Shown here one piece after another: positions 5,602-39,819 of a DNA stretch of 39,903 nt. The DNA comes from a virus. Lineage: Duplodnaviria; Heunggongvirae; Uroviricota; Caudoviricetes. The DNA lies in the IMG/VR virus record IMGVR_UViG_3300018486_000049, positions 1 through 39,903 of that record. One strand, written 5' to 3'. The notes beneath the pieces were generated by a model. That model was not told the origin of the DNA, ran no database searches, and saw nothing but the letters and a program-made list of their open reading frames with translations. Both the position numbers and the translations under genes were made by a program. The stretch's first letter is position 1. Each line of letters starts with the position of its first letter.

Positions 5602-6180
5602 TCAGGGTTCGCCGGTGGCTGACACAACGGGATTTGTCGCCGGAAATTTTTTATACAGCGTCGATATGCCCACATCAAAAATCAGTGCAACACGCTGTCG
5701 GGATTCTCCGGCCGCAATCAACCGGCCAGCCTGAGCCCATTCATCAGGCGTCAGCTTCGGCCTACGACCTCCGATCCTGCCTTGTGCCCGGGCTGCATCC
5801 AGCCCGGCGCGGGTTCGTTCGACGATTAACTCGCGTTCCATTTCTGCAAGAGCGCCCATGATGTGAAAGAAAAATCGCCCCATCGGGGTTGAGGTATCAA
5901 TACTGTCGGTCAGGCTTCTGAAATTAACCCCTCGCTGGCGAAGCTCTTCAGTCATAGAGACAAGATGGCGCATGCTACGCCCGAGCCTGTCGAGCTTCCA
6001 GACAACGAGAGTATCACCGGCATTAAGTTGCCTGAGTGCGCGATTTAACCCTGGCCTGTTTGTCGATTTACCGCTGATTTTATCCTCGAAAATTAGCTCA
6101 CATCCCGACCGTTCCAGCGCGTCACGCTGTAGCGCGGTATTTTGTTCATTTGTTGATACGCGCACATAGCCAACCTGCAT
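5602..6180 (-). CDS. Serine recombinase, DNA invertase of the Hin/Gin/Pin/Cin family
   Basis: [13 protein letters not shown]... with catalytic Ser in the RVS motif, conserved [12 protein letters not shown] and C-terminal HTH; ATG at 6180 preferred over the TTG at 6198; adjacent to an invertible segment. Confidence 0.9.
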
Positions 6181-6236
6181 TTGTTTTCCCTCATGCAAAA
6201 GCCCAAATGATGCCAGCTAGGGGGGAAAACTACATT

Positions 6237-6260
6237 TTCTTAAACGTTGGTTTAGGAGAA
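6237..6260. repeat. gix-like inversion crossover site (invertase-proximal)
   Basis: TTCTTAAACGTTGGTTTAGGAGAA; inverted copy of the half-site GGTTT(A/G)GGAGAA also at 8160-8185 and again at 39796-39819; resembles the 12-2-12 gix/hix architecture. Confidence 0.6.
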
Positions 6261-6599
6261 GCGGCTAAAAGGAATGTAGGGACAGGGGCAAATCAGATAC
6301 CTGATATGGGTAGCTTCACGCTTTCTGTTTCAGGTACTGGATATCAAAAATTACCATCAGGTTTTATTCTTCAGTGGGGCTCAATCGGCGCACCAGGCAT
6401 TGCACAGGATGTAGTAACCCATTTCCCGATTGCATTTCCAAACAGATGTCTGCGTGTTTTGGTCTCACAAGACTACACACCAGATAGCGGGGCTGTTGGT
6501 TATATTGCCTGTGCAGGTTTTAGTCCCGACCCGGTTAAATTTATATCCAGAGCCAGTACTCCTGGCCTCGGCGCTTCATTTTTAGCGTTAGGCTGTTAA
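6237..6599 (+). CDS. Alternative tail-fibre C-terminal variable segment (currently silent orientation, no own start)
   Basis: Plus-strand frame open through the crossover site reading [11 protein letters not shown]..., in the same frame relative to the site as LTYLGLGEGSA in H, so inversion would fuse it in frame to the constant part of H. Confidence 0.55.
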
Positions 6600-6620
6600 T
6601 TTAGCTATATGGAGTGAAAA

Positions 6621-7061
6621 ATGAATTACATATATTCCGCGACTACAAACTCTTTCTATCCGCTGGAGATGAAAGAGGATTACACTCAAGCTGACTCATG
6701 GCCAGATGATGCTGTTGAAGTTGATGAGCAAGTGTATATTGCGTTTTCCGGATTACCGCCGAAAGGAAAAATCCGTATCGCTGGAGAAAATGGTTTTCCT
6801 GCATGGTCTGAAATTCCACCACCAACACATGAGGAACAGATTGCTGCAGCCGAACAGGAAAAGCAGCAACTGATTAATCAGGCCAACGATTATATGAACA
6901 GTAAACAATGGCCTGGTAAAGCGGCTATTGGTCGTCTGAAAGGTGAGGAACTGGCGCAATATAATTTGTGGCTGGATTATCTGGACGCACTGGAGCTGGT
7001 CGATACTTCCGGTGCGCCAGATATTGAATGGCCTACGCCTCCGGCAGTTCAGGCCAGATGA
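6621..7061 (+). CDS. Alternative tail-fibre assembly chaperone (silent-orientation partner)
   Basis: 146 aa ORF directly after the alternative fibre segment; its C-terminus converges on that of the minus-strand chaperone. Confidence 0.7.
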   Translation: MNYIYSATTNSFYPLEMKEDYTQADSWPDDAVEVDEQVYIAFSGLPPKGKIRIAGENGFPAWSEIPPPTHEEQIAAAEQEKQQLINQANDYMNSKQWPGKAAIGRLKGEELAQYNLWLDYLDALELVDTSGAPDIEWPTPPAVQAR

Positions 7062-7638
7062 CATCCGGCGCGGTGCTGGTATCTGTTGCCGTCACCGCGT
7101 CAATGTAATCCAGCGCAGCGTTAAGTCGGGCGGTTTCTGCCTGCGTCAGATTCCGTCCGGCCTGCAATTTCAGCTGAATCAGACTAATGGAAGCCATTGC
7201 AGTATCAATCAGTGACTGACGCTGTGCTTCTGCCGCGCCTACTGCGGCGCTATGCTGTGCCACAGTATCTGTTACCCATTTCTCACCATCCCATTCATCG
7301 TATGGCGTTAACGGGGCGATAGTGGTTGTATTTTCAGGATAATCACCCGGAGCTGTGATTTCTTTCGATTCTCCTGTTTCGGTGCTATAGATGATTTCAC
7401 CGCGATGGTCTGACACATATTCCCATGAGTTTAAATCTGCCGAACGGCAGATTGCATAACCCGCCTTATGTGTGCCAGGAGCATCTAAACAGGAATATGC
7501 AGGGATACCGACACCCACAGCAAGATATTCAGTTGATGCAGAAATATACTCCCGTGTCTCACTGTCATAGTTATAAACGGTAATCTCTCCTGCCTTTGTG
7601 GCAATAAATTTACTATTCAAGATGGCGTTATACATCAT
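7033..7638 (-). CDS. G: Tail-fibre assembly chaperone gpG
   Basis: 201 aa ORF immediately after H, start overlapping the H stop. Confidence 0.8.
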   Translation of the reverse strand: MMYNAILNSKFIATKAGEITVYNYDSETREYISASTEYLAVGVGIPAYSCLDAPGTHKAGYAICRSADLNSWEYVSDHRGEIIYSTETGESKEITAPGDYPENTTTIAPLTPYDEWDGEKWVTDTVAQHSAAVGAAEAQRQSLIDTAMASISLIQLKLQAGRNLTQAETARLNAALDYIDAVTATDTSTAPDVIWPELPEA

Positions 7639-9221
7639 GCAGCCCTCACAATGTAATTAAATGAAATATTACGTGGGCGTGTCTCTGCTGCACCGACAAT
7701 ACTGGTACTCAACCCCGTCGCTGTTCGTTTGTTATTTTTATTTCCTTCAATCAGACAGTTGTAATCATCATTACCAATTAACGAATTAGTGGCATCAATA
7801 CCGTCCGGGGACAAGGCATTAGTTGTAGAACTTAAAGTCAGCATCTCGTCTGAACTTGGAAGATTTTTTAATGGTATTTCATTGCGAGAAATACCCGCGT
7901 AAAAAAAGGACTCATGCCTGTGCGCTTCAAAAGAGTCATCCTGAAGACTTAGCAAGGCACGTCCCGCATCCACACCACGCCCGTCATCCCAGCCACGAAT
8001 AAACTCACCACGTAAATCAGGCAATTTATTTGTCGGATAAGCCTTTGCCAGTTCCGGGTATTCTTCAGCAGAAAAAGCGGCACCGTTGCATTTCAGCCAG
8101 CCTGTTGGCGGAGTGGCGGAAGGCCACGGAACAGGCACGCCAACGGGTAATGCCGAACCTTCTCCCAAACCAAGGTATGTGAGAAGACCAGCTACATCCT
8201 TTCCACTCAAATTGGTAAGCGTATTGTCCAGCGGTTGTTTACCTGCCAGCGCATTAAGCATTGTCGTGGCAAAGTTCGGATCATTCCCCAGTGCCGCCGC
8301 CAGTTCGTTCAGTGTATCCAGTGCAGCAGGTGCAGAACCCACCATTCCTGCAATCGCCGATTTCACAAAAGCCGTAGTGGCAATCTGTGTATTGTTGACC
8401 GACTGCGCCGCCGTGGGGGCTGTTGGCGTTCCGGTGAGTGCCGGACTCGACAACGGTGCTTTTAGTGCCAGCGCATTGTTAATGGTGGTACTGAAATTCG
8501 GATCATTGTTAATGGCTGCGGCTATTTCTTTCAGCGTGTCCAGCGTGGCTGGCGCACCATTAATAAGGGCCGTCAGTGCCGCCTGTACAAACGCAGTGGT
8601 CGCAACCTGCGTGGTATTATTCCCCGCCGCTGGCGTTGGCGCTTTGGGGGTTCCGGTAAATGTCGGGCTGGCTTTTGGCGCGTACTGTGAATGCGGGTCC
8701 GGTGCGGCAAGATGTTTTGCCATCTGATCATCCGCGTAAACCTTCAGCTCCAGTGCCTTGTCATCCACATACTTGCGGGTTGCCAGCACTACAGCAGGGT
8801 CGATTTTCAGGGTGATATTGTCCGTGCTGCTGGTAATCAGCACCATGCGCACGGTCTGAGTGCGCCCGCTACCTTCAGCCAGTTGCGGCTTATAGCTTTC
8901 CGGGCAGTTGCCCACGGCAATCAATGCCCCGGACTCATCAAACAAGCCCACTTCACGTATCCACCAACCGCCCTCGTTTTCAGGGATCACCTGTTCGGCA
9001 ATAATCTGGCTGCTGTTCTGCGGGTCGATATAAAGCATATTCAGCGCAGCCCGGCGTTTCTCATTTACCAGTGCCGTCTGCTTTGCGTCCGGCGTTGGCA
9101 ATACTCCACCGCCATCGCCCACCGCCATATGGGTAATTTTTAGCGGCACACCGAGCGCGGCGGCGCTGGCAAGTTTCGCCGCGCCAATATCCGTCAGCAG
9201 GGTATAAAATTTTGTGCTCAT
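7635..9221 (-). CDS. H: Tail fibre protein gpH (constant N-terminal part plus invertible C-terminal part)
   Basis: 528 aa, Ala/Thr/Asn-rich with an internal tandem repeat; crossover site inside the gene at 8160-8185. Confidence 0.85.
   Translation of the reverse strand: MSTKFYTLLTDIGAAKLASAAALGVPLKITHMAVGDGGGVLPTPDAKQTALVNEKRRAALNMLYIDPQNSSQIIAEQVIPENEGGWWIREVGLFDESGALIAVGNCPESYKPQLAEGSGRTQTVRMVLITSSTDNITLKIDPAVVLATRKYVDDKALELKVYADDQMAKHLAAPDPHSQYAPKASPTFTGTPKAPTPAAGNNTTQVATTAFVQAALTALINGAPATLDTLKEIAAAINNDPNFSTTINNALALKAPLSSPALTGTPTAPTAAQSVNNTQIATTAFVKSAIAGMVGSAPAALDTLNELAAALGNDPNFATTMLNALAGKQPLDNTLTNLSGKDVAGLLTYLGLGEGSALPVGVPVPWPSATPPTGWLKCNGAAFSAEEYPELAKAYPTNKLPDLRGEFIRGWDDGRGVDAGRALLSLQDDSFEAHRHESFFYAGISRNEIPLKNLPSSDEMLTLSSTTNALSPDGIDATNSLIGNDDYNCLIEGNKNNKRTATGLSTSIVGAAETRPRNISFNYIVRAA
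8160..8185. repeat. gix-like inversion crossover site inside the fibre gene
   Basis: TTCTCCCAAACCAAGGTATGTGAGAA; inverted partner of 6237-6260. Confidence 0.6.
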
Positions 9222-9823
9222 GGATTCACTCTCATTGTGTCAATAACATGGACCGCCCCGCCTTCATGCGCGGTGCCACCGGAAATAATCGTTTCGTTGA
9301 TATACGGATAGATCGTGATTTCTTCGCCAAGATAGCTGGCGGCTCCCACCCAATGCGGGCCGCTGGTCTGCAGATTGATGGACATGCCGATCATGTGGCG
9401 GCTACATGGTTTGGCATCGCTTATCAGTCGCTCAAGTTCCAGATAGGTATCTTCAGTGATGCCCTGGTCCTGCACGCCGATATCCAGGCGAAACGTGCCC
9501 GGTGTTTCTCCGGTCTGCCACCACTCAATAATGCGGATCAGGAATCCGAACGGCTCCACCACCCGCCGCACGGCACTGGTGGTCCCTTTATGCTGATGAA
9601 TATAAAAAGCATCCTTCACCACCTGGCGCTTGACGCTTTCTGTCCAGCCCTCGTCCCAGCGATCCACAGAGAACGCCCAGGCGAGATAAGGCAGGAAACT
9701 GACCGGACAGGTTGCCGGATTCCACAAGTCACGAAGCGGCACCTGCAGATCAGAAATCCCGCTGCAGGTTTGCGCCAGTCGGCGCTCCAGTGGTGTTGAA
9801 CCCGGTGGCAGCAGACTATTCAT
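9218..9823 (-). CDS. I: Baseplate protein gpI
   Basis: 201 aa ORF in the P2 position between J and H, start overlaps the J stop. Confidence 0.8.
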   Translation of the reverse strand: MNSLLPPGSTPLERRLAQTCSGISDLQVPLRDLWNPATCPVSFLPYLAWAFSVDRWDEGWTESVKRQVVKDAFYIHQHKGTTSAVRRVVEPFGFLIRIIEWWQTGETPGTFRLDIGVQDQGITEDTYLELERLISDAKPCSRHMIGMSINLQTSGPHWVGAASYLGEEITIYPYINETIISGGTAHEGGAVHVIDTMRVNP

Positions 9824-10724
9824 CCGTTCCTCCGTTGGTTACGCTCCACTGCGTACATGATGCCGCCTGTGTTTTGTTCAGGACCACATCCGCCAGAGGA
9901 GAAGCCAGCTCCACACGCTGCACCCCCTCAACATGCAGGGCGGCAAAAATGGCGCTACGGCGAATATCCCGACCAAGACGCGTCTGACTGGCGATGTACT
10001 TCTGCAGGCTGGCTTTTGCCGCTGCCATTACCGGCTCTGCTTCCGGTCCAGGATAGAGAAAAATGGTGGCTTCCACGCGATACGGGATGATTTCTGCGCT
10101 GCGAACCGTAAGACGGTCAGCCACCGGGCGGACGTTCTCACTGTTCAGAGCTTTTTCCACCACGTCCAGCAGGTCTTTTTCTGCAGTTCCATCGCCTTCG
10201 CGGCTAAGGACAGTCAGCACCACCTCTGCAGGTGCCGGGCTGGTTGCACTGGCATCCGCCACCCGACCGTCGGCGCTTCGGGCATGAAATTCATAAGCTG
10301 CAGTTGGCCCCGCAACAGAAAGCCCTTCAAAGGCCGCAGGCACACGCAGGCGCAACGCTTCATCGCTTTCCATCACAGCTGCAACGGGCGGCACAGCATC
10401 ATTATCAGCAGGCGTCACCGTCAGGCGTGTCACGTTGTAGTTGGCAGCGAGCTGGTCAAGATCGCCGCCCATCGCGTAAGCCACCATCACCGCCTGCGCG
10501 GCTTCGTTAATGCGCTGGCGCAGAAGCAACTCACGGTAAGCGTTCTCCTGCAACAATTTAGTGGCGGGTTCAGATTCCAGTTCCAGCGTGCGGATCACTG
10601 CTTCCTGCTCATCTTTCGGATGAAGCGCCACAAATTCTGCCTTGCGTTCGGCAAGCAGCGTCTCAAAGTCCGGCACATCCACAATCTGCGGTGCAGGCAA
10701 CTGCGAAAGGTCAATCACTGCCAT
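9816..10724 (-). CDS. J: Baseplate protein gpJ
   Basis: Track ORF starts at a GTG at 10763; internal ATG at 10724 (MAVIDLSQ...) preferred; P2 order W-J-I. Confidence 0.8.
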   Translation of the reverse strand: MAVIDLSQLPAPQIVDVPDFETLLAERKAEFVALHPKDEQEAVIRTLELESEPATKLLQENAYRELLLRQRINEAAQAVMVAYAMGGDLDQLAANYNVTRLTVTPADNDAVPPVAAVMESDEALRLRVPAAFEGLSVAGPTAAYEFHARSADGRVADASATSPAPAEVVLTVLSREGDGTAEKDLLDVVEKALNSENVRPVADRLTVRSAEIIPYRVEATIFLYPGPEAEPVMAAAKASLQKYIASQTRLGRDIRRSAIFAALHVEGVQRVELASPLADVVLNKTQAASCTQWSVTNGGTDE

Positions 10725-11070
10725 TCTCTGCTCCTGTTGATACGGAAAGGGACACAGGCACACCGTTATTCCGCCGCCCGGTCAGCTCCACCACCATTGA
10801 ACCGTCAAAATTGCTGTTGATGGTGATGGAATCCAGCGTCAACCGTGGCTCCCAGCGACTCAGCGCCACATACACTGCCGACATGACCTGCAGGCGTAAT
10901 GCCGGATTTTGTGGCTGATCTATCAGTGCCGACAGCAGGGAACCATATTCCCGGCGGGCAATACGGCTACCCTGCGGTGTCAGCAGAATGTCCCGCACCG
11001 ACTGGCGCAGATGATCAATATCAGTAATGACTTTGCCGCTGGTATTGTTCATCCCGCTATAAAGCGTCAT
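10711..11070 (-). CDS. W: Baseplate wedge protein gpW
   Basis: 119 aa, resembles P2 gpW as recalled; position between V and J. Confidence 0.8.
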   Translation of the reverse strand: MTLYSGMNNTSGKVITDIDHLRQSVRDILLTPQGSRIARREYGSLLSALIDQPQNPALRLQVMSAVYVALSRWEPRLTLDSITINSNFDGSMVVELTGRRNNGVPVSLSVSTGAENGSD

Positions 11071-11645
11071 ACCGGGCCTCCGGTTGTATCGCCGCCTTTC
11101 AGGACGCCAGTATGCTGATGCGCATCAACCACGATCCCGTTAGAACTCATCGCTCCGCCGCCCTGGGTAACGCCACCATTGATCACCACTTCGCTGTTAA
11201 TGCGCGTGCGGTCAGCCTCCAGTACAAACTCACTGGTTTTCATGGTGATGTTGTCAGCAGCCTCAATGACCATTGATTTGATGCCCCTGACATACCAGCG
11301 CCCGGTGGCGGGTTCGTATTCAAACCAGCCACCGTCAGGATGTTCTGTCACGCAGGCGTCCGCCGACGTCGACGGTGGTGCGAACTGATTCGAATAGACA
11401 GCGGGCAGCGCAAAGGCGGTTTCCAGATTGCCGCCCAGACTCAGCAGCACCACCTGCTCACCTTCCGATGGTCGCCACCATGTACGGGCATTCCCGGCAC
11501 GCAGCGTCAGCCAGCTGATCCAGTTGGTTTCAAGCTCGCCCGTTTTCACCCGGCAAAGCCAGTTTTCCCTGTCCACTTCGGTGACTACCCCTGTGCGGAT
11601 CAGGTTGGTGATAAGGCGCATGATTTCGGTTAATTGTGCGTTCAT
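11067..11645 (-). CDS. V: Baseplate hub/spike protein gpV
   Basis: 192 aa, position and size of P2 V, first gene of the V-W-J-I-H-G operon. Confidence 0.8.
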   Translation of the reverse strand: MNAQLTEIMRLITNLIRTGVVTEVDRENWLCRVKTGELETNWISWLTLRAGNARTWWRPSEGEQVVLLSLGGNLETAFALPAVYSNQFAPPSTSADACVTEHPDGGWFEYEPATGRWYVRGIKSMVIEAADNITMKTSEFVLEADRTRINSEVVINGGVTQGGGAMSSNGIVVDAHQHTGVLKGGDTTGGPV

Positions 11646-11691
11646 AGGGAAAGGTTGCCATCAGGGGAAGAAAGGCGGCAGTGCTGCAACT

Positions 11692-11709
11692 TGTATCAGT
11701 GCTGATACA
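11692..11709. promoter_or_regulatory. Candidate Ogr-type late activator site (TGT-N12-ACA) upstream of V
   Basis: TGTATCAGTGCTGATACA perfect dyad in the S-V intergenic gap. Confidence 0.45.
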
Positions 11710-11713
11710 AAGA

Positions 11714-13482: not shown

Positions 13483-13483
13483 T

Positions 13484-14192: not shown

Positions 14193-14195
14193 AAT

Positions 14196-20525: not shown

Positions 20526-20795
20526 CTACTGCATCCGTCCGGGTAAATCGCTTTCATTGCGTAAACGCCAAGCTAACTGTTCACGATCCCAAACTATATC
20601 GTCTTTGCTAGCCTTTCTAAAATTTGCTAGCACAGTACTGCTTATAGCGTAATTACCATTCTCATTAGTTTTGATGAACTCGTCCCCAAAGTCATTGATT
20701 AGAAATTCAACAACCTCGGACTGATACAACACACCATTAGAACGAGTGGTATTAACCATCCAGTCAACTATTTTTATCAGAGAATCATTCATCAT
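20526..20795 (-). CDS. Hypothetical small protein (about 89 aa)
   Basis: ORF in the AT-rich region between Q and the cos region; start chosen at MMNDS to limit overlap; no motif recognised. Confidence 0.45.
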   Translation of the reverse strand: MMNDSLIKIVDWMVNTTRSNGVLYQSEVVEFLINDFGDEFIKTNENGNYAISSTVLANFRKASKDDIVWDREQLAWRLRNESDLPGRMQ

Positions 20796-20994
20796 CACTC
20801 TCAGCTTTTGGAACAAATAAAACTAGAGTATCTTCATGAAAAACTCCGCGCTGGTTCTTAGCACCAATAAACCACGTACAAACTGCCATTGTAGCCGATT
20901 GGTAGTGATCAATTACCATGATTGGACCATGTCCTGTTGCATGTTTTACTTTCTGGCCCGGTGTATATTTTGCCACTCTCACGTCTCCTTTCAT
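20785..20994 (-). CDS. DUF2158-like small protein (YodC-like pattern)
   Basis: 69 aa with the G..VK...G.GP.MVI....C.WF pattern I associate with DUF2158. Confidence 0.5.
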   Translation of the reverse strand: MKGDVRVAKYTPGQKVKHATGHGPIMVIDHYQSATMAVCTWFIGAKNQRGVFHEDTLVLFVPKAESDDE

Positions 20995-21061
20995 GTGTAA
21001 GTTATCAATTTCAGAATATATCTACATTAATTGCAAGTAAACATGTTTGCGCGCGCTCGTA

Positions 21062-21074
21062 TCCCCGCCACGCC
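21062..21074. other. Candidate cos (cohesive end) site region
   Basis: Reverse complement GGCGTGGCGGGGA resembles the start of the P2/186 cohesive end as I recall it; lies in the non-coding gap between Q-side and A-side genes. Confidence 0.3.
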
Positions 21075-21453
21075 TGCCCGCTTTATGCAGTGGTTTTCAT
21101 GCACATGCATGACATGAGCAAAAGCCCGCCAGTTCTGGCGGATCTGAGCAAAGACGATCCTCAATCGATCATGCGATTTCATGCAGCATAGTCATGCACT
21201 GTCAAGGAAGTGAAAATCCGTATCTGAATGGCCACTTGAAAAACGGATCATACGGGTTTACAAAGATGAATGTTCGCTGTGAACGGGAAGCGGAAGTTAA
21301 CTTTCAGATAACATAATCCATATGCACGAGAACCTCTAAAATAGAATGGGACACCTAAGCGGGGTACTTACAACGATTCTTTCCATATTCACAGTTAACA
21401 CTCTGTTTGGCGTATTTTTATTCAAATAGCAAACACCAATAAAAGGAGTTTCC

Positions 21454-21789
21454 ATGAACAATATTCCCCCTATACCACAGTTAGGAATTTATGTCTCAAA
21501 AATCGATCCCACCCTACGTATCACTGTAACCGATGTTGATATTGTTGATGGTGAGGATGATTCTCCTGATGATGAATTGTTTTATTTAGTCCACTGGATC
21601 GAGGGGGAAGATGAAAGTGATATGACAGCAATGGGATTTGAGCTAGACCCAGTAGAGTGGCAGGCTTTCGTTGAATCTGAGCAATTAGTGTTTGAGCGTG
21701 ATCCGTACATGGATTCAATCCCCGAAAATTCAAACTTGGCAAAGATTCGGGATTTTCTCATGAAGACTAAACAGAATGATCATTCGTAA
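21454..21789 (+). CDS. Hypothetical strongly acidic protein (111 aa)
   Basis: Good ATG with GGAG upstream; Asp/Glu-rich runs (DGEDDSPDDE, EGEDESD); only plus-strand gene in this region. Confidence 0.55.
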   Translation: MNNIPPIPQLGIYVSKIDPTLRITVTDVDIVDGEDDSPDDELFYLVHWIEGEDESDMTAMGFELDPVEWQAFVESEQLVFERDPYMDSIPENSNLAKIRDFLMKTKQNDHS

Positions 21790-21943
21790 GTGTAAGCATC
21801 CATCAGGAAAATGGTTTTGTAAGTGAATCATCAACTTTTAGAGAGTCTCAGACACTCCCACTTCTGCTTCTGACACAAAGCGGACGATCACTTATCAAAA
21901 TAACCGCCCACCTTACGCCTTATTTCACTCATTGCCCAAACTA

Positions 21944-21973
21944 GCCCCCATCAGAATGAATCCTCCTGGGGGC
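21944..21973. terminator. Candidate bidirectional hairpin terminator
   Basis: GC-rich 7 bp stem GCCCCCA / TGGGGGC with 16 nt loop between convergent genes. Confidence 0.4.
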
Positions 21974-21981
21974 AACATTTC

Positions 21982-22215
21982 TTAATGCAGCCAGCTGTCG
22001 TCCTCCCACACCTTCTGCATAATTTTCATCACTTGTTTTCTTTCTTCATCCAGTTGCAGTCCGGTTAGTTCCACACCGTTAGAGCTACCTTTGCGAATGC
22101 GAATTACCGTTTTGGGATACAGGGGGCGCAGATTGCGGTAAAGCTCGGATTCAAGTGCGTCCAAGGTAGACTGGCTAATCTTCTGCTCTTTATCGATCAT
22201 TATTTCAATGCGCAT
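21982..22215 (-). CDS. DinI-like protein (C-terminal, DinI-like part of a Tum-type antirepressor)
   Basis: MRIEIMIDKEQ...VWEDDSWLH resembles DinI as recalled; SD GAGGTGA before the ATG at 22215; the frame is also open upstream to 22287. Confidence 0.7.
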   Translation of the reverse strand: MRIEIMIDKEQKISQSTLDALESELYRNLRPLYPKTVIRIRKGSSNGVELTGLQLDEERKQVMKIMQKVWEDDSWLH

Positions 22216-22225
22216 AAAAGTCACC

Positions 22226-22414
22226 TCAGCTGATGACATCCATTGAGCGGTTGTATTCGTGGCTTCTGATTTTTGCCATGAGTTCATCAGTCAATTCAGA
22301 AACCCACTGCAGAGCCAGCCCCTTCTCTTCATCACTACACTCACTAGCCGCTACAAGCTTAAGAAAAAAATCAATGCGCTGGAGCTTCAAAGACTCCAAA
22401 AAATAGTCCTGCAT
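22226..22414 (-). CDS. Small protein (62 aa), possible N-terminal part of a split Tum-like antirepressor
   Basis: GGAGG SD before the ATG; overlaps the upstream-open DinI frame out of frame; LexA box in its promoter. Confidence 0.5.
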   Translation of the reverse strand: MQDYFLESLKLQRIDFFLKLVAASECSDEEKGLALQWVSELTDELMAKIRSHEYNRSMDVIS

Positions 22415-27974: not shown

Positions 27975-28916
27975 ATGTCAACTAATAAAATCACATTTCG
28001 CCATATTGAAGATCATCTGAAAGCCATGGTCATGCAGAATCGAGGAGGGCAAAAAGTCATTGAGAGAATACTCATGGCCTATGGTTTCAAATCACGCCAA
28101 GCATTCTGTAACCACCTTGGTATTTCACAAAGTACAATGGCTAACAGATATGCACGCGATACCTTCCCTGCTGATTGGGTTGTTATATGTTCAATGGAAA
28201 CTGGCGCATCAATCGAATGGTTAGCATTTGGTTTAGATGCTGAAGAAGGAGTGCCAGTTCCTTCGCCAGAACGGCATGCTGAAAAACAGTCTGCAGATGA
28301 ATTTTGCAATGAAGTTCACACCCCCACGATAAAGTTCGATAATGAAAACCACATGGATTTCACTCGAGGGGGTAAAGCAGCAATAGAGCGAATTGTTAAG
28401 GCTTACGGTTACAAAACGCGCCAAGCCTTAGCCGATCACCTTGGCATCTCAAAAAGCACATTAGCTACACGATACATGCGAGACATTTTTCCGGCAGACT
28501 GGATCATCCAATGCTGTTTAGAAACAGGAGTGTCTCTCGAGTGGTTATCTTTTGGTAAGGGGCATTCCAATCAAACAAAGCTAAGTGGGTTGCTTACATT
28601 AGACTGCTATGATCTACGTGACGGCAAACTTACTGATCAAAGAGAATTAATCGTTTCGAGCGAAATTTTACCTCAAAATTTAAAACATCCCTATATAGTT
28701 AATTCCGCAAATGATTCATATATCATTAGCAAAGAGGAGTATCTTAGCGATGGTCTATGGTTAGTATCTATTAACGGAGAATTTACTTTTAGAGACATAT
28801 TTAAACTTCCAAACAATCGCATCCGCGTTGAAAACACAAAATATAGCTTTGAATGCGATAAAGAAGATTTGGAATTTAATAATAAAGTTAAAGGAATAAT
28901 TAGAAAAAGGGTTTAA
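27975..28916 (+). CDS. cI: CI-like immunity repressor with tandemly duplicated N-terminal DNA-binding domain
   Basis: 313 aa; residues about 23-85 and 122-184 are an internal repeat (about 60 percent identical, IERI..AYG.K.RQA...HLGIS.ST.A.RY.RD.FPADW...C.ETG.S.EWL.FG); C-terminal domain SDGLWLVSINGEF...; divergent from Apl/Cox. Confidence 0.8.
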   Translation: MSTNKITFRHIEDHLKAMVMQNRGGQKVIERILMAYGFKSRQAFCNHLGISQSTMANRYARDTFPADWVVICSMETGASIEWLAFGLDAEEGVPVPSPERHAEKQSADEFCNEVHTPTIKFDNENHMDFTRGGKAAIERIVKAYGYKTRQALADHLGISKSTLATRYMRDIFPADWIIQCCLETGVSLEWLSFGKGHSNQTKLSGLLTLDCYDLRDGKLTDQRELIVSSEILPQNLKHPYIVNSANDSYIISKEEYLSDGLWLVSINGEFTFRDIFKLPNNRIRVENTKYSFECDKEDLEFNNKVKGIIRKRV

Positions 28917-28918: not shown

Positions 28919-29968
28919 ATGAGCTTTACGAAAACTATTGAATTTGCAAACTATACCTTAAATTTTGGAGAGGACAAAGTTCTCTTAGATGCTTTTGATT
29001 GCATTGTTTTTCCTTCATTTTTCGCACAAAAATACGTTAGAAAATTTAAAGATACAGAATATTTCTTTACTGACACAAAAATTATTACGTTAGATACTAC
29101 AGATTCAGATTTTATTGGTCCTATAGTTCCAACAATTGCATTGTGTGGCCGCATTATAAAAAAGACCATATTTAAACGAGATCAAATATTTCAAGATGGT
29201 CAATTAATTCGAGATCACAGGACGCTAGAAAGTCACCCCAGCTCTATTTTTATTCTTATGCTTAATGAGCACAGATTAATGCTTTGCAAAGAGGTTTCTG
29301 GAGCCCCTACCCTAGAAGAATTTGAAAATACTAGCAAGTATTGCCTTGCACAGCGATATAATTCTTTTGTGGATTACGAAGTAAAAAAAAATAAAAGAAT
29401 TAGAAAGAAAAAATCATACATTGATCGACTGTATAAAAAAGATATTTATCGTAAACTAGGAGCCCCCAAATTACGGGTTACCCCCTTAACAGACCCAAGA
29501 TCATTGAGCAATTTTGTTGAACTCTTTTCTGTTGTTAATAGATTATCAATTGAGTTATTACCAACAAATAGTGAAAATATATCTCTTGATGGCTTCTGGA
29601 GGAAATTTGAACAAGAAAAAGAAGAACTTAATAGTAGTAAAGCTCAATTAGTATACACAAATAAAAATGAAGATGGTTTAAATTCTGATGCCGTCATTCA
29701 AAAAACAACAAGTGCAACCCGAATGGCCAACTCTAAAGTAATTATCAGTGGTAAAGATGAACACGGAGCAAGGCTATCAGGGAATAATGATAGTTTTACT
29801 CTAAAAGCATCAAGGCCACAACTTAGTTCTGATTTGGAAAGAGCTGCTCAAGAGGCGTATTCTGCATTCACAGAATTAAAGGATGAAGGAAATATTATTA
29901 TTCCAGAACGTGAAGATTATACTAAAATTTTTTCCAAGTTAACATCAATAATTTCTAGGTGGCTATAG
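28919..29968 (+). CDS. Cargo protein 1 of repressor-linked cassette, function unknown (349 aa, soluble)
   Basis: ATG 2 nt after the repressor stop; AT-rich; basic patch KKNKRIRKKKSYIDRLYKKDIYRK; no catalytic motif recognised. Confidence 0.7.
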   Translation: MSFTKTIEFANYTLNFGEDKVLLDAFDCIVFPSFFAQKYVRKFKDTEYFFTDTKIITLDTTDSDFIGPIVPTIALCGRIIKKTIFKRDQIFQDGQLIRDHRTLESHPSSIFILMLNEHRLMLCKEVSGAPTLEEFENTSKYCLAQRYNSFVDYEVKKNKRIRKKKSYIDRLYKKDIYRKLGAPKLRVTPLTDPRSLSNFVELFSVVNRLSIELLPTNSENISLDGFWRKFEQEKEELNSSKAQLVYTNKNEDGLNSDAVIQKTTSATRMANSKVIISGKDEHGARLSGNNDSFTLKASRPQLSSDLERAAQEAYSAFTELKDEGNIIIPEREDYTKIFSKLTSIISRWL

Positions 29969-29969
29969 T

Positions 29970-30575
29970 ATGAAATATACATTCAACCCAGAAGATCTGA
30001 CCAAAGAGCGATCTTTGCATGATGTTTACAAATTAACTAAAAAAATAAAGGTCAATTCATTTGACTTTTATTTCACATTATTGTTAGTGATATTATTATC
30101 TATTAATGCTTTTTGTCTATCTTCATCACCAGAGTTAATTTCATCTATTAGACAATGGACACCTTTAGTATTCGGATTCACTACAACAACATTAGGTTTT
30201 TTAATTACTGGATTTACAATATTTGCAACCATAAATAAACCTGAACTTTTCCTTTCATTAATGGAGTATAAGCATCCATTATACGGGATAAGTTACTTAA
30301 AATATGTTTATGGTGTATTTATGAGAGTATTTATATATTTCATATTTTGGTCTGTTATCTATCTTTTAGTCCTTCTTTTCGGGCAAGAAAATGGATTGGC
30401 TACAAAATTACTCAGAGCCTTAATGTTTTCTCATTGCACTAAAGTTGTTGGAGTTCAAATACTATATATACTCGTAGGAAGCAGTGCAGTGTTCCTTGTA
30501 TTAACTTTAAAAACTTTCCTGTTCAATATTTATGCTATGTTAATGCAATCTCTACGCTGGGAAGTAGAAAGATAA
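29970..30575 (+). CDS. Cargo protein 2, small multi-pass membrane protein (201 aa)
   Basis: ATG 1 nt after gene 1 stop with AGGTGG SD; about four hydrophobic helices; AT-rich. Confidence 0.7.
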   Translation: MKYTFNPEDLTKERSLHDVYKLTKKIKVNSFDFYFTLLLVILLSINAFCLSSSPELISSIRQWTPLVFGFTTTTLGFLITGFTIFATINKPELFLSLMEYKHPLYGISYLKYVYGVFMRVFIYFIFWSVIYLLVLLFGQENGLATKLLRALMFSHCTKVVGVQILYILVGSSAVFLVLTLKTFLFNIYAMLMQSLRWEVER

Positions 30576-30611: not shown

Positions 30612-30640
30612 TTGACACTGGTTATACATACAGTAAAAAT
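30612..30640 (+). promoter_or_regulatory. Candidate promoter for int downstream of the cargo cassette
   Basis: Perfect TTGACA -35, 17 bp spacer, weak AAAAAT -10, preceded by an AT-rich inverted repeat (30587-30612). Confidence 0.3.
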
Positions 30641-30664
30641 GCTCTCCACTGGAGGGCATTTTTT

Positions 30665-31717
30665 ATGGCAGTACGAAAACTCACCACAGGAAAATGGCTA
30701 TGCGAATGTTACCCCGCGGGACGTAGTGGACGTCGTGTGCGTAAACAATTCGCCACCAAAGGTGAAGCTCTGGCTTTTGAGCGTCACACGATGGAAGAAA
30801 CCGAAGCAAAGCCCTGGCTGGGTGAATCAGTGGATCGTCGAACACTGAAAGACGTGGTTGAGCTATGGTTCAAACTACATGGTAAATCTCTGACAGCTGG
30901 GCAGCATGTCTATGACAAATTGCTGTTGATAGTTGACGCTCTGGGCAATCCCCTTGCAACCGATCTCACCTCTAAAATGTTTGCCCACTATCGAGATAAA
31001 CGCCTGACAGGAGAGATCTACTTCAGCGAAAAATGGAAGAAAGGAGCAAGCCCGGTCACCATTAACCTGGAGCAAAGCTATCTTAGTAGTGTTTTTAGCG
31101 AACTATCCCGCCTGGGCGAATGGTCGTATCCGAACCCACTGGAGAACATGCGAAAATTCACCATCGCAGAAAAAGAGATGGCATGGCTTACCCATGAGCA
31201 GATTGTTGAATTACTGGCTGATTGCAAACGTCAGGACCCAATTCTGGCACTGGTAGTTAAGATATGCTTAAGCACAGGCGCACGCTGGCGAGAAGCCGTA
31301 AATCTTACTCGTTCACAGGTGACCAAATACCGAATTACCTTTGTAAGAACGAAGGGGAAGAAAAACAGAAGCATCCCTATCAGTAAAGAGCTTTACGAAG
31401 AGATCATGGCGCTTGATGGGTTCAATTTCTTCACAGACTGCTATTTTCAATTTTTATCCGTGATGGAAAAAACGTCTATCGTGCTCCCTCGCGGTCAACT
31501 CACACACGTTCTGCGCCATACGTTTGCAGCGCACTTCATGATGTCGGGTGGAAACATCTTGGCCTTACAAAAAATTCTCGGACATCACGATATAAAAATG
31601 ACGATGCGTTACGCACATCTGGCACCGGATCATCTGGAAACGGCGCTCCGTTTCAATCCTCTGGCAACGCTGCCAAGTGGCGACAAAGTGGCGGCAGCGG
31701 TTGGCATTACCCCGTAA
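30665..31717 (+). CDS. int: Tyrosine integrase (P2/186 Int family)
   Basis: 350 aa with C-terminal catalytic signature LRHTFAAH...GHHDIKMTMRYAHL. Confidence 0.9.
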   Translation: MAVRKLTTGKWLCECYPAGRSGRRVRKQFATKGEALAFERHTMEETEAKPWLGESVDRRTLKDVVELWFKLHGKSLTAGQHVYDKLLLIVDALGNPLATDLTSKMFAHYRDKRLTGEIYFSEKWKKGASPVTINLEQSYLSSVFSELSRLGEWSYPNPLENMRKFTIAEKEMAWLTHEQIVELLADCKRQDPILALVVKICLSTGARWREAVNLTRSQVTKYRITFVRTKGKKNRSIPISKELYEEIMALDGFNFFTDCYFQFLSVMEKTSIVLPRGQLTHVLRHTFAAHFMMSGGNILALQKILGHHDIKMTMRYAHLAPDHLETALRFNPLATLPSGDKVAAAVGITP

Positions 31718-31880
31718 TAACCACCACTGACCACCAACCCAACTTATTGTTTTTACTCTAACTTATTGTTTTCATTAACCCGTTTACATAAATGGGTTTT
31801 TTGTTGCCTGAAATTTATGCCGTTTAAAATCATGATGTTAGAAGCACTGTTTTTTAACGATGGCGACAAATTGGCGGCAG
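31678..31880. repeat. att-like junction flanked by an imperfect 20 bp direct repeat
   Basis: TGGCGACAAAGTGGCGGCAG (31678-31697, inside the int 3-prime end) and TGGCGACAAATTGGCGGCAG (31861-31880, next to the ogr stop) flank an AT-rich 160 bp segment. Confidence 0.45.
31741..31772. repeat. Tandem 13 bp direct repeats in the att region (possible Int arm-type sites)
   Basis: AACTTATTGTTTT at 31741-31753 and 31760-31772; followed by a weak hairpin plus T-run (31777-31802). Confidence 0.4.
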
Positions 31881-31882
31881 AG

Positions 31883-32101
31883 TCAAAGAGAGAGCACCAC
31901 CTGTCCTGATTTCATTGGATGCGGCTGAACCGGATTTGACTCTTTTGGCGTTGCAATCGAACGAACAAAAGTTTCATGGGTAACAAAAGTATGGCTGCAG
32001 TTAATGTTCTGGCACTGGTTGTAACGCTCTTTGGTCAATGAAGATACCTGAAAACTGCTGCGAGTATGGGCGGCACTTCCACACAGTGGGCAAATCATCA
32101 T
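31883..32101 (-). CDS. ogr: Late gene activator Ogr/Delta-family zinc-finger protein
   Basis: 72 aa from MMICPLCGSAAH... with CPLC...CQNINCSH zinc-binding pattern matching Ogr as recalled. Confidence 0.85.
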   Translation of the reverse strand: MMICPLCGSAAHTRSSFQVSSLTKERYNQCQNINCSHTFVTHETFVRSIATPKESNPVQPHPMKSGQVVLSL

Positions 32102-32191
32102 TTTTCGAGTTCTCCCCATTTTTGCTAAATTCACAATAATGATACCGCATTATTCCATTTTGAAAACTTAAAAGTTCTCTATTACGAAGAA

Positions 32192-36700: not shown

Positions 36701-36848
36701 CGGCCTGATCAAGCTGCTTTATTGCATCGCGGGATTTTTTGACAGCAGCAGCCAGTTCTCTTGAACTGGCCTGCGCAGATCGAAATGGGCGGGTGAGCTT
36801 GTCAACCGCATTAAGAATGACCTGCAGACGCAGGTTGTTATCACTCAT
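33771..36848 (-). CDS. T: Tail tape measure protein (gpT), second copy, 1025 aa
   Basis: Coiled-coil N-terminus, hydrophobic repeats, 216 aa longer than the first copy. Confidence 0.9.
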   Translation of the reverse strand: MSDNNLRLQVILNAVDKLTRPFRSAQASSRELAAAVKKSRDAIKQLDQAGSSLDSFRKLQAENQKLGDRLNYARQRANLLSQELGAMGPPSQRQVVALGRQRLAVQRLEERQKKLQQQTALVRAELYRAGISAKDDAGATARLARETSRYNQELSKQEARLKRLGEAQRRMNAARASYARSLEVRDRIAGAGATTTAAGLAMGAPVMAAVKSYTSMEDAMKGVAKQVNGLRDDNGNRTARFYEMQDAIKAASEQLPMENGAVDFAALVEGGARMNVANPDDSWEDQKRDLLAFASTAAKAATAFELPADELSESLGKIAQLYKIPTRNIEQLGDALNYLDDNAMSKGADIIDVMQRLGGVADRLDYRKAAALGSTFLTLGAAPEVAASAANAMVRELSIATMQSKSFFEGMNLLKLNPEVIEKQMTKDAMGTIQRVLEKVNALPQDKRLSAMTMLFGKEFGDDAAKLANNLPELQRQLKLTAGNDALGSMQKESDINKDSLSAQWLLVKTGAQNTFSSLGETLRQPLMDILYTVKSVTGALRRWVEANPELTGTLMKASAVVAAVTVGLGTLAVALAAVLGPLAVIRLGFSVLGIKTLSSVTAAVTRTSSALSWLAGAPLALLRRGLASSGNAAGLLTAPLSSLRRTASLTGNVLKTVAGAPVALLRSGLSGLRAVAVMFMNPLAVLRGGLAAAGTVLRVLASGPLAMLRVALYAISGLLGALLSPIGLVVTALAGVALVVWKYWQPITAFLGGVVEGFKAAAGPISAAFEPLKPVFQWIGDKVQALWGWFTDLLTPVKSTSAELQSAAAMGRRFGEALAEGLNMVMHPLDSLKSGVSWLLEKLGIVSKEAAKAKLPESVTRQQPATVNADGKVMMPSGGFPSWGYGFAGMYDSGGYIPRGQFGIVGENGPEIVNGPANVTSRRNTAALAAVVAGMMGVAAAPAELPPLHPLALPAKGGEAIVSRAATVPLVQRIEAPTQIIIQTQPGQSAQDIAREVARQLDERERRLKAKARSNYSDQGGYDA

Positions 36849-37277
36849 CGTTGGCCCCGCTTCTCTGAATCGCTTTATACCGCCATTCCAGCACTTCGGT
36901 CAGCGGCATAACGTCAGTAACGGATGGCGGCCAGTGAAAAATGGTGGCGATATCTGCCACCAGATCGTCAACCGTCAGGCTGTCGGTAAACCGGCAAGCA
37001 CCGACTTCTTCAACAAAAAAGTGACAACCTCAACCGACATGGCAGTGAGATCTGCCGGGTCCATCTCTGCAATTTCCTGTGCAGTCAGTGCCGGACTGGA
37101 GATGCGGGGGATCACGGTCATCATCGCGTTTACATCCATATCCATAATGGCCTGCAGGCGTGTACCGCGCAGCGCACCGGACTGCGGTTTACGCAGCACA
37201 ATTTCGGTGATTTCTGTTTTACCGCGCTTGATGGGGGTATCCAGTTGAATGGTCTTTTCAGTCTGCTTATCGCTCAT
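36841..37277 (-). CDS. E+E-prime -1 frameshift product, second copy
   Basis: Plus-strand CAAAAAA at 37014-37020; -1 frame open to a TGA at 36841-36843 overlapping the T start. Confidence 0.6.
36975..37277 (-). CDS. E: Tail assembly chaperone gpE, second copy
   Basis: 100 aa, ends just after a TTTTTTG slippery site. Confidence 0.8.
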   Translation of the reverse strand: MSDKQTEKTIQLDTPIKRGKTEITEIVLRKPQSGALRGTRLQAIMDMDVNAMMTVIPRISSPALTAQEIAEMDPADLTAMSVEVVTFLLKKSVLAGLPTA

Positions 37278-37331
37278 TTTGCTGTCCTGTCAATTGGGTT
37301 CTGGCGCGGTATCCCGCGCCGTTCAGATATA

Positions 37332-37847
37332 TCAGAGGCCGAGGGCGTTGCGGTGCGCTTCCATCAGGTCCACACCGTCCACAATTTCCACCATGTTGAT
37401 AAGGTCCACTTCATAGAGCACCTCACCATTGATGGTCAGCTTCGCGTAGCTGTTGGTACTGGTCACTTTGGTGGTGTTGCTTTCGCCCGTCTTCCACTCG
37501 CCGGAATCCACTTCTTTGTGACGTCCACGCACGACAAGCTCCACGGCCTGCACTTCCCCGGTATCGTCACGCTGAATAGAGCCGGTAAAGCGCAGCTGGA
37601 TGCCATCCACCGTGGCTTTACCCATCTGTTTAAACAGCAGCAATTCAGTACCACCAATGGAAAATTCTGTGTCCAGCGCACTGTCATCAAGCCCCAGATC
37701 CACATCCACCGCACCCGGCATTCCGCCGCCGCGATACTTCTCATATTTGCGGGTAAATTTCGGCAGCGTCAGCGACTCAACGATCCCCTGCCAGTTGTTC
37801 CCGTCGTTAAACAGGTTCAGGTGTTTTAATTTGCGTGGTAATGCCAT
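37332..37847 (-). CDS. FII: Tail tube protein FII, second copy
   Basis: 171 aa, homologous to 3819-4337. Confidence 0.9.
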   Translation of the reverse strand: MALPRKLKHLNLFNDGNNWQGIVESLTLPKFTRKYEKYRGGGMPGAVDVDLGLDDSALDTEFSIGGTELLLFKQMGKATVDGIQLRFTGSIQRDDTGEVQAVELVVRGRHKEVDSGEWKTGESNTTKVTSTNSYAKLTINGEVLYEVDLINMVEIVDGVDLMEAHRNALGL

Positions 37848-37856
37848 GTTGTCCCC

Positions 37857-39029
37857 TTACGCGCTGACCTGGCTGGCGAAATTCACCAGGTACTGATCGG
37901 TGATGCGCTGACGCAGCATCAGGTTTTCAAGTGGCGGCACTGGCGTGTAGTCGTAGTCGATGGTGAGTTTTCCGGCTTTCAGCGTGTCTTTGTCGTTCAC
38001 CGACTCATCCAGCCAGCAATCACCACCAATGAGATAGCCCTGACTGACCAGGCTGCGCATTTTGGCGCGGATACCTTCGATAATGTCGCGGGCCAGCGAC
38101 GGGTTAAGCGGTTTATCCACCGCCCACATGTGTGCTTCTGCCATCGTGTCCATCAGCACCTGCGCCGTGCGGGTGTAGTTTTCGAAGGCAAAGAGCGGGT
38201 CATCACTCAGGCAGCGGGAACCCCAGAAGCGGAAACCGTCTTTACGCACAAGCGTGGTGACGTCGTTCTGGTTCAGCAGACCTGCATCGGTTGCCGGGTC
38301 CTGCAGATCCCAGAACACATCTGCAGAAATTCCGGTGACACCGTTCACGCCCACGTTGGACAGGCTTTTGTGCCATCCGGTCTGCTCGTCAATTTTGGCG
38401 CGCAGACCAAGCGCACGGGCGGTGGCATATGCCGTTGCTTCGGCATTCAGCACCGTGTCCCAGCCAGTAAAGTCAGGCCAGATCAGCATCCCTTCGCGCT
38501 GGCTGAAGTTTTCGCGGTAAGTGATCGCCTCCTGCACTGTCTTGCAGCCATACGCTGACAGGTAAGCAAATCCACGCAGGCTTTGCGCCACGCTCAGCAA
38601 CTCAGTAGCTACCGCCTTGGTGTCGTGGCCTGGCACGCCGAGAATGCGCGGTTTAACGCCGAGCTGTGACTGGGCAGATAACAGGGCTTTCATACCTGTT
38701 TTTTTACCTTCAGCAGTCACTGCGCCGATGATATTGGTCGTGGTTTCGTCTTCCGTTTCACCCTGCGGCACACGCACAACAATGGTCACGGGTTTTGCCT
38801 GGTCAGCGATGGCATCCAGCGAACGGGCCAGAGTACCTGACTCACCCGCTTTACCGCTGGCAGTCAGCACATCAGTGATCAGCACGGGTTTATTAAGAGG
38901 AAACATTTTTGCATCGGCATCATCGCCCGTGCAGACCATACCCACGATGGCGGTGCTCACCGTGGTAATAGATCGGGTGCCTTCGTTGACTTCAACAACG
39001 CGCACCCCGTGGTGGTAATCCTGAGCCAT
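37857..39029 (-). CDS. FI: Tail sheath protein FI, second copy
   Basis: 390 aa, homologous to 4350-5537. Confidence 0.9.
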
Positions 39030-39105
39030 AGTGGCGAACCTCCTGATTGGATTAGGCTTCGCCCTATGTTGAAGTGATTGTGCCTGACAAACAGCTAAGC
39101 GCAGT

Positions 39106-39123
39106 TGTGTCGTTATTCACACA
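39106..39123. promoter_or_regulatory. Candidate Ogr-type late activator site (TGT-N12-ACA) upstream of FI copy 2
   Basis: TGTGTCGTTATTCACACA, about 85 bp upstream of the FI start codon. Confidence 0.45.
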
Positions 39124-39171
39124 AAATAACGGTATTTGTCTGCTTGCAGGGATAATCAACATAATGCTGAT

Positions 39172-39738
39172 TCAGGGGGATTCATTGATCTTATTTGCCG
39201 GAAATTTTCTATAAATGGTAGAAACGCCTACATCAAAAATCAGTGCAATACGCTGTCTTGATTCTCCGGCCTCGAGTAAACGCCCAATCTGTGCCCACTG
39301 TTCGGTGGTCAACTTAGGACGGCGTCCACCTACTCTGCCTTTGGCACGAGCTGCAGCCAGCCCTGCCCTGGTACGTTCAACTATCAGTTCGCGTTCCATT
39401 TCAGCCAGGGCACCCATGACATGAAAAAAGAAACGGCCCATTGGGGTACTGGTATCAATACTGTCAGTCAGGCTTCTGAAATTCACACCACGCTGGCGCA
39501 ACTCTTCTATCAGCGTAACAAGATGCCGCATACTGCGCCCCAACCTGTCCAGCTTCCAGACAACCAGCGTGTCTCCTGCCGATAGTGTCCTGAGTAGTTT
39601 TTTCAGCCCCGGTCTGTCGGACTTAGTGCCACTGATTTTGTCCTCAAAAATCTGCTCACATCCCGCGCAGTTCAGTGCATTACGTTGCAAATCGGTGTTC
39701 TGGTCATTTGTTGACACGCGTACATAGCCAATAAGCAT
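39172..39738 (-). CDS. Serine recombinase, DNA invertase (Gin/Pin/Cin-like), second copy
   Basis: [22 protein letters not shown]... closely resembles Gin/Pin as recalled; catalytic Ser in RVS. Confidence 0.9.
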   Translation of the reverse strand: MLIGYVRVSTNDQNTDLQRNALNCAGCEQIFEDKISGTKSDRPGLKKLLRTLSAGDTLVVWKLDRLGRSMRHLVTLIEELRQRGVNFRSLTDSIDTSTPMGRFFFHVMGALAEMERELIVERTRAGLAAARAKGRVGGRRPKLTTEQWAQIGRLLEAGESRQRIALIFDVGVSTIYRKFPANKINESP

Positions 39739-39795
39739 GATCATCCCCCTGAATAAAAACCGGAGATGATGCCAGTTAGCTGTTACCTCTGCATT

Positions 39796-39819
39796 TTCTT
39801 AAACGTTGGTTTGGGAGAA
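39796..39819. repeat. gix-like crossover site of the second prophage
   Basis: TTCTTAAACGTTGGTTTGGGAGAA, near-identical to 6237-6260. Confidence 0.55.

Follow-up and report, generated by a model that had tools for sequence, protein, structure and literature searches.

Site-specific inversion of tail-fibre gene segments has been described in the bacteriophages Mu, with its Gin/gix/sis system, and P1, with Cin/cix. In these systems a small serine invertase recombines 26-bp sites, each consisting of two 12-bp half-sites around a 2-bp core, and in the Mu G segment, which carries alternative fibre C-termini together with their chaperones, the site centre lies 67 bp from the start codon of the invertase gene. 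The same features are found in a stretch of 39,903 nucleotides of viral DNA (IMG/VR record IMGVR_UViG_3300018486_000049, Caudoviricetes; the whole of this stretch is referred to here as the window), which consists of two different P2-like (Peduoviridae-type) prophages lying head-to-tail at one attachment site. The host phage, being P2-like, differs from Mu and P1, and the module is flanked by the fibre genes and the sheath gene; the invertible segment is 1.9 kb here as against 3 kb in Mu and 4.2 kb in P1, and the core is AA/TT whereas that of gix is GA/TC. A preliminary description of the window had drawn attention to two related invertases, each beside a near-identical crossover site, and had speculated that each enzyme could act on the other's sites and that recombination between these two sites could delete or circularise the intervening DNA. 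The evidence set out below makes it very probable that the window contains two canonical, already described tail-fibre switches of the Gin family, carried by a tandem P2-like double lysogen, with cross-talk between them to be expected and deletion between the direct sites being at most a rare side reaction.

The tandem arrangement is apparent from the list of open reading frames (ORFs) and from annotated relatives, which reveal two P2-type gene sets on the minus strand in the same orientation. Prophage 1 extends from before position 1 up to its own integrase gene (30665-31717, plus strand; Pfam Int_N and Phage_integrase), a region that is 99.9% identical in E. coli WWCOL-315, where it adjoins rcdA. 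Prophage 2 begins with the gene for an ogr-type late activator (31883-32134, minus strand; Pfam Ogr_Delta) and continues past the right end of the window, and the outer ends of both prophages lie beyond the window. In single lysogens of prophage 1 the match to the window stops at 31818, and in relatives of prophage 2 it begins at 31792; the overlap of these two boundaries identifies a 27-bp att core (ATGGGTTTTTTGTTGCCTGAAATTTAT; 31792-31818) at the junction of the prophages. The genes that flank single lysogens place the attachment site of E. coli relatives between ybjL and rcdA. An int-ogr junction like that of the window is also present, at 95.6% identity, in the closed genome of E. coli FDAARGOS_1248. 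The window thus has what distinguishes a P2-like tandem double lysogen, two gene sets of one orientation that meet, int to ogr, at a common att core, and the overlap at this core together with the junction in FDAARGOS_1248 indicates that both modules are on one replicon. Two further strains were considered as tandem lysogens and rejected. E. coli CFSAN061772 (NZ_CP042893.1 2995423-3036423) has a tandemly amplified, defective P2-like prophage of at least two identical units at the same att site; the sheath-to-lysis region is missing from the units, which hence have no invertase module, and the tape-measure gene is truncated in each. TUM10008 has a single deleted prophage.

Beside each invertase gene lies a 26-bp crossover site. 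Site A of prophage 1 (TTTTCTTAAACG TT GGTTTAGGAGAA; 6235-6260, core TT at 6247-6248) and site A' of prophage 2 (TTTTCTTAAACG TT GGTTTGGGAGAA; 39794-39819, core TT at 39806-39807) are identical at 25 of 26 positions. The only other copy in the window of the 24-mer at 6237-6260 is that at 39796-39819, with one mismatch, and no match was found in 100 dinucleotide-preserving shuffles. Both sites have an asymmetric TT on the plus strand and both are placed just upstream of a minus-strand invertase gene, which makes A and A' direct repeats, with centres 33,559 bp apart. The distance from site centre to invertase ATG is 67 bp for A and 68 bp for A', that between gixR and gin of Mu also being 67 bp. 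Similarity extends past the sites (39197-39903 compared with 5639-6344, 76% over 711 bp), so they are parts of homologous modules and not isolated or chance motifs; within the window, the two prophages have no longer exact identity in common than the 21 bp at this site. As the sites also encode a conserved fibre peptide, LGLGE, the near-identity of A and A' reflects inheritance from a shared ancestor. The earlier account of two sites differing at one position, in direct orientation and about 33.5 kb apart was therefore accurate, and both modules are, as it had supposed, on one DNA, here one contiguous molecule with a tandem lysogen.

That account did not list a third site. No partner of site A was found with up to three mismatches or by inverted-repeat seeding, and the partner, site B (TTCTCCCAAACC AA GGTATGTGAGAA, core AA; 8160-8185), came from a core-pattern search and a 26-mer consensus scorer. 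At a cut of at least 18 of 24 positions the scorer identified exactly three sites in the window, A/TT, B/AA and A'/TT, as against 0-1 in 20 shuffles. Site B is inverted relative to both A and A' and falls within the tail-fibre gene H of prophage 1 (7635-9221, minus strand; constant part 8173-9221, variable part 7635-8172, from the translation) at the codons for ...TYLGLGEG.... Sites A and B bound a segment of 1,925 bp in which the expressed fibre C-terminus is accompanied on one strand by a tail-fibre assembly chaperone gene (7033-7638, minus strand; Pfam Caudo_TAP, E 4e-31), the other strand carrying a silent pair, an alternative C-terminus, Hv' (6248-6599, plus strand), and an alternative chaperone gene in the silent orientation (6621-7061, plus strand; Pfam Caudo_TAP, E 2e-38). 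When the segment was flipped in silico between A and B, the constant part of the fibre was joined in frame to the silent cassette (...LTYLGLGE|AAKRNVGTG...GC*), giving an uninterrupted ORF up to ...GC*. Prophage 1 therefore has inverted 26-bp sites, one of them within H, around two opposed Caudo_TAP genes, as is characteristic of a tail-fibre switch. For prophage 2, A' is the one site in the window, followed by the start of a silent alternative fibre C-terminus (39807-39903, plus strand, cut by the window end) whose frame 1 is homologous to Hv' of prophage 1; its partner B' lies outside the window and is predicted near 41.67 kb from the prophage of SCU-204, which is 98.6% identical. Each prophage would thus carry its own host-range switch of the Gin/Cin/Pin type, made up of an invertase, an adjacent site, a probable Fis enhancer and an inverted site in the fibre gene, and a flip of the ~1.9-kb segment would exchange the C-terminal, receptor-binding end of the fibre together with its chaperone. 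Mosaic boundaries at site B, where matches to phages begin at 8159, were considered as traces of past exchange, an interpretation that was rejected since they would arise equally well if the subject had a flipped or different cassette.

The two enzymes, invertase 1 (5602-6180, minus strand, 192 aa), a serine recombinase of the Gin/Cin/Pin/Hin family, and invertase 2 (39172-39738, minus strand, 188 aa), are of one family, as had been proposed. They are identical at 146 of 181 positions (81%) and share a size of ~190 aa with an N-terminal resolvase catalytic domain (Pfam Resolvase, E-values 5e-51 and 2e-53) and a C-terminal helix-turn-helix (Pfam HTH_7). No NCBIfam model is specific to this invertase family, and every match was below its cut-off. 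Invertase 1 aligns over its full length with Gin in the PDB (3uj3; E 1e-86, residues 1-183) and has identities of 70% to Mu Gin, 76.5% to a P1-like Cin and 100% to the prophage invertase of E. coli FORC 064; the public collection has 5,469 blocks with the exact invertase 2 protein. The catalytic S9, in a YVRVST motif, is invariant in the alignment in both proteins, as are the Fis-contact residues Q150, R153 and L154, which are shared with Gin. The equivalent residues of Hin (Q151, R154 and L155) are conserved in invertases and not in resolvases, and mark dependence on the enhancer (PMC3798978). H106 and M114 are likewise invariant in both proteins, which therefore have no hyperactivating, Fis-independent substitution at these positions, Gin variants in the PDB having V at position 114. 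The Hin mutant H107Y is Fis-independent, and such hyperactive mutants delete and invert equally (PMC4817059). In helix B, invertase 2 has the basic triad K46, K47 and R50, and invertase 1 has N46, R47 and R50, position 46 thus not being basic, as in the identical FORC 064 enzyme; the corresponding residue 47 of Hin, in the enhancer-contacting basic helix B (47/48/51), is lysine in all 15 aligned invertases (PMC3798978). With S9, H106, M114, Q150, R153 and L154 all kept, both proteins look like ordinary enhancer-dependent invertases.

The enhancer of hin spans 65 bp, has Fis sites at its two ends and is situated ~100 bp from hixL (PMC3798978). A simple Fis-motif scan of the window was uninformative and candidate enhancers were instead placed by positional homology to the 15-mers of Mu gin. 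A comparison of the two invertase 5' ends, which the preliminary description had suggested, revealed homologous candidate 15-mers at near-equal positions, centred at +96 and +145 from the crossover centre for invertase 1 and at +97 and +146 for invertase 2. Candidate enhancer 1 (6096-6159, minus strand) has Fis-type 15-mers at 6145-6159 and 6096-6110, and candidate enhancer 2 (39654-39717, minus strand) has 15-mers at 39703-39717 and 39654-39668, both of the form G-N13-C. Their spacing fits both the ~100 bp distance and the 65-bp length known from hin, and a Fis enhancer is probable within the first ~90 coding bases of each invertase gene.

Evidence that such segments flip comes from relatives. 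The closed genome of E. coli FDAARGOS_1248 (NZ_CP069542.1) has, at ybjL/rcdA, tandem prophage-2-like copies that are 99.99-100% identical to each other, in which the 1,842-bp segments (extracted loci L004, 14814-16681, and L002, 23856-25723) are exact reverse complements between copies, all else being collinear and the gene order canonical. Opposite orientations in otherwise identical copies indicate that the segment flips in these relatives. The strain also offers a natural snapshot of both switch states on one chromosome. The corresponding direct sites of this strain are separated by 33,429 bp, and both prophage copies are retained. Both cassette orders are present among the loci that encode the exact invertase 2 protein, and the parental junction of the window at 6000-6345 is 100% identical in nine E. 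coli genomes. In E. coli E2348/69, P2-like loci flip in culture and three invertible prophage loci have been found (PMC4272514).

Given the near-identical half-sites and published examples of trans-action between prophage invertases, action of either enzyme on the sites of the other, as put forward in the preliminary description, is very plausible. PinQ/PinE act on e14 and Fin acts on the Hin (H) segment (PMC12529663), and a trans-acting invertase has been inferred for Phi1/Phi4 of EC958 from near-identical sites (PMC4134206). The realistic outcome of co-residence would be trans-complementation, with either invertase flipping either segment.

A deletion of the kind envisaged between directly oriented sites has evidently occurred in E. 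coli E2348/69, where a prophage remnant (NC_011601.1 2972578-2985714, reverse complement) is 99.1% identical to positions 13-7687 of the window. Its homology ends at site B with the junction TTCTCCCAAACC AA GGGAAAGAAGAA (extracted locus L007, 8122-8147), which leads directly into the 3' part of an integrase gene, next to yfiB. An intact relative in FORC 064 (NZ_CP022664.1; extracted locus L008) has site B at 8857-8882 and, at 29930-29955, an int quasi-site, Q (TTCACTAAAACG AA GGGAAAGAAGAA; as continuous sequence TTCACTAAAACGAAGGGAAAGAAGAA). Q scores 17/24, which only one other non-cognate 26-mer in 33 kb attains, and has the same AA core and orientation as B. The E2348/69 remnant corresponds exactly to the left part of B, AA and the right part of Q, with 21,073 bp lost, and is read most economically as the outcome of deletion by an invertase at directly oriented sites. 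Deletion through a 4-bp microhomology (AAGG) is formally conceivable, although the double coincidence with the centres of the two sites speaks against it.

Deletion of 33.5 kb by the invertase acting on A and A' themselves would leave a hybrid in which the tail-shaft genes and invertase 1 of prophage 1 are joined to the fibre, head and replication genes of prophage 2, and would release a P2-sized circle with the reciprocal chimera. Ligation after exchange is chemically possible, the sites being identical at 25 of 26 positions with the same cores; judged by gene order both products would be collinear, complete P2-like genomes, and the 21,073-bp loss in E2348/69, where the intact relative's invertase is 100% identical to invertase 1, is a natural direct-repeat precedent. 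Recombination by Cin at quasi-sites is also on record (PMC4134206, refs 50 and 51). Nonetheless wild-type invertases of this kind, acting in cis, 'only efficiently catalyze inversion' (PMC4513852; see also PMC3798978), H106 and M114 are wild-type in both proteins, and the Fis/enhancer complex enforces an orientation-specific synapsis at a supercoil branch (PMC3798978), an enhancer-dependent and orientation-selective synapse that would make A x A' recombination a disfavoured, rare side reaction. Wild-type Gin or Hin yields on direct repeats mainly knotted, unrecombined DNA. FDAARGOS_1248, with direct sites 33.4 kb apart and evident flipping, keeps both copies. The exact hybrid was found in none of 5,426 complete E. 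coli genomes and in none of three contig collections: its junction (6000-6247 joined to 39807-39903) gave matches of at most 97.4% in these genomes, as against 100% for the parental junction, the best of them being parental prophage-1-type junctions, and as a 79-nt pattern it was absent from the genome, metagenome and viral contig collections. The reciprocal junction matched at no more than 98.0% in E. coli genomes and was absent from metagenome contigs; as a 78-mer it has an exact match in two IMG/VR contigs (L020 5565-5977 and L021 1582-1659), where the combination occurs solely as patchy allelic variation. These contigs were considered as products of the 33.5-kb event and rejected, being ordinary prophage-2-type modules, 98.1% identical to 39491-39903. 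They combine a prophage-2-type upstream region of the invertase with a prophage-1-type first 36 nt after the crossover site, and this patchiness close by is reminiscent of P1, for which 'localized conversion at crossover sequences' has been described. Deletion by this route is thus unlikely. Any loss or circularisation of the intervening DNA would fairly likely be the work, not of the invertases, but of integrase and Cox at the att cores, which is the normal circularisation route for either prophage, or of RecA between longer homologies. A perfect 27-bp att core lies between the prophages, and the unseen part of prophage 2, for which the 98.6%-identical SCU-204 prophage serves as proxy, shares 3.7 kb at 94.9% in direct orientation with window positions 7939-11645. 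RecA recombination at this tract would also give a hybrid prophage. Homology of a size for RecA had been expected within the window as well and was not there, the prophages being only 67-76% identical with a longest exact stretch of 21 bp, which counts against this route. The speculation on deletion and circularisation therefore has little support as a meaningful outcome, given an enzyme class efficient in inversion only and the lack of any hybrid junction in these collections, and survives as a rare event, on an evolutionary timescale, of the kind seen in the relative with the 21-kb deletion.

Two inter-prophage pairs are inverted and permitted by the rules for these sites: B x A', of which both members lie within the window at a distance of 31,634 bp, and A x B'. 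Recombination of this kind would give a flip of ~31.6 kb. The B x A' inversion would fuse the constant part of the prophage 1 fibre to the silent cassette of prophage 2 and scramble both prophages. Orientation and cores are compatible, the enhancer works many kilobases from a site (PMC3798978), and an off-target inversion of 3.6 kb is present in one public contig that encodes the exact invertase 2 protein (GCA_028498695.1, DANFSC010000044.1). There, site B appears to have recombined with a weak (12/24) quasi-site in the sheath gene (GCGACATTATCG AA GGTATCCGCGCC), whose sequence also occurs in the prophage 2 sheath gene of the window (38064-38089); the inverted stretch takes in the 5' part of the sheath gene together with the invertase gene and the invertible segment, and both reciprocal junctions are present (extracted locus L019, 8057-8082 and 11650-11675; comparison with L011). 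Either a genuine off-target event or an assembly artefact may be responsible. Set against inter-prophage inversion are its absence from the window and from FDAARGOS_1248, a product that would inactivate both prophages, and a whole-genome inversion screen of E2348/69, with three Gin-family modules, that revealed three local loci only at a sensitivity of ~1% (PMC4272514), so that it is regarded as decidedly unlikely. Both invertase-mediated outcomes, A x A' deletion and B x A' inversion, would be unlikely events of very low frequency. The tandem arrangement itself could be an assembly chimera formed through the 27-bp att core, in which case the modules would not truly be 33.5 kb apart. The 80-nt int-ogr junction of the window had no match in species-representative genome contigs, and the exact prophage pair of the window was in no complete E. 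coli genome searched. The join is, on the other hand, exactly what tandem site-specific integration predicts, and its counterpart in FDAARGOS_1248 lies in a closed genome. Tandem P2 double lysogens are, moreover, classical, and a chimera is highly improbable.

The reading favoured here, of two canonical switches in a tandem lysogen with deletion as a rare side reaction, has a number of points against it. The anatomy, homology, orientation and tandem arrangement are shown by the sequence, and the function of the enhancers, cross-action and the frequency of events are inferred. Partner site B' of prophage 2 lies beyond the window. Assignment of the enhancers is by homology only, and one of the four 15-mers, the proximal one of invertase 1, lacks the terminal C. 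Invertase 1 has N46 at a position that is lysine throughout the 15-invertase alignment of PMC3798978. The E2348/69 remnant, moreover, is an instance of deletion between direct sites, its breakpoint falling at the cores of site B and of the 17/24 int quasi-site. A broader proposal, that crossover sites of co-resident P2-like prophages serve as rare exchange points for invertases, which would then contribute to phage mosaicism and prophage decay in addition to host-range switching, is unlikely to hold. If it were true, A x A' recombination would give two complete chimeric phage genomes in one step, with the whole tail-shaft module swapped, and the 21-kb E2348/69 deletion would be a case of prophage pruning by such side activity. 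The E2348/69 remnant gives the earlier speculation on deletion a measurable, low-frequency basis.

Some other features of prophage 1 deserve mention. Its CI repressor (27975-28916) has 313 aa and two matches to the Phage_CI_repr helix-turn-helix domain, which suggests that the N-terminal domain is duplicated relative to the 570-nt CI genes of relatives. Two genes lie between cI and int, at 28919-29968 (349 aa) and 29970-30575 (201 aa); their proteins had no Pfam or PADLOC match, and they are annotated as hypothetical in E. coli, with a DUF4747 label on the region in some genomes. As this spot is known to vary in P2-like phages, the two genes may be cargo or may serve in defence. Small ORFs without a PADLOC match also occupy a variable region (20526-22287) that separates the portal gene from the replication gene; among their products are a DUF6953 protein (20526-20816) and one that is DinI-like (21982-22287).

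Iida and Hiestand-Nauer reportedly found, in work of 1986 and 1987, rare Cin recombination at quasi-cix sites that share the central dinucleotide. Similar behaviour would explain both the E2348/69 deletion and the sheath-gene inversion in relatives of the window. In contrast to quasi-cix recombination, A x A' would involve two bona fide sites, and no product of it was observed in the collections searched. An arrangement similar to that of the window is found in EC958, where the prophages Phi1, Phi2 and Phi4 are on one chromosome, each with a tail-fibre segment and 26-bp sites, and where one invertase was inferred to act in trans from near-identical sites and a truncated Phi4 invertase (PMC4134206). 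The right half-sites of Phi2, GGTTTAGGAGAA and GGTTTGGGGGAA, match or closely resemble those described here. The EC958 prophages are, however, far apart on the chromosome whereas those of the window are adjacent in tandem, and no inter-prophage deletion or inversion was reported there (PMC4134206). PinQ/PinE on the e14 P segment and Fin of Fels-2 on the Salmonella H segment provide further examples in which the invertase of one prophage flips another element (PMC12529663 and references therein), with agreement at all but one of 16 positions between the e14 site (TTGGTTTGGGAGAAGG) and A' (TTGGTTTGGGAGAAGC). In those cases cross-action has been shown experimentally, whereas for the window we infer it. 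The type of switch is therefore already known, tail-fibre switching, 26-bp sites and trans-action all having been published, and the appropriate annotation of the window is a tandem P2-like double lysogen with two standard tail-fibre switches, alternative orientations of which are to be expected in assemblies. To what has been described for these systems, the present analysis adds a full site map that includes the permitted inter-prophage pair B x A', an argument from sequence for enhancer dependence and, in E2348/69, an example of a deletion.

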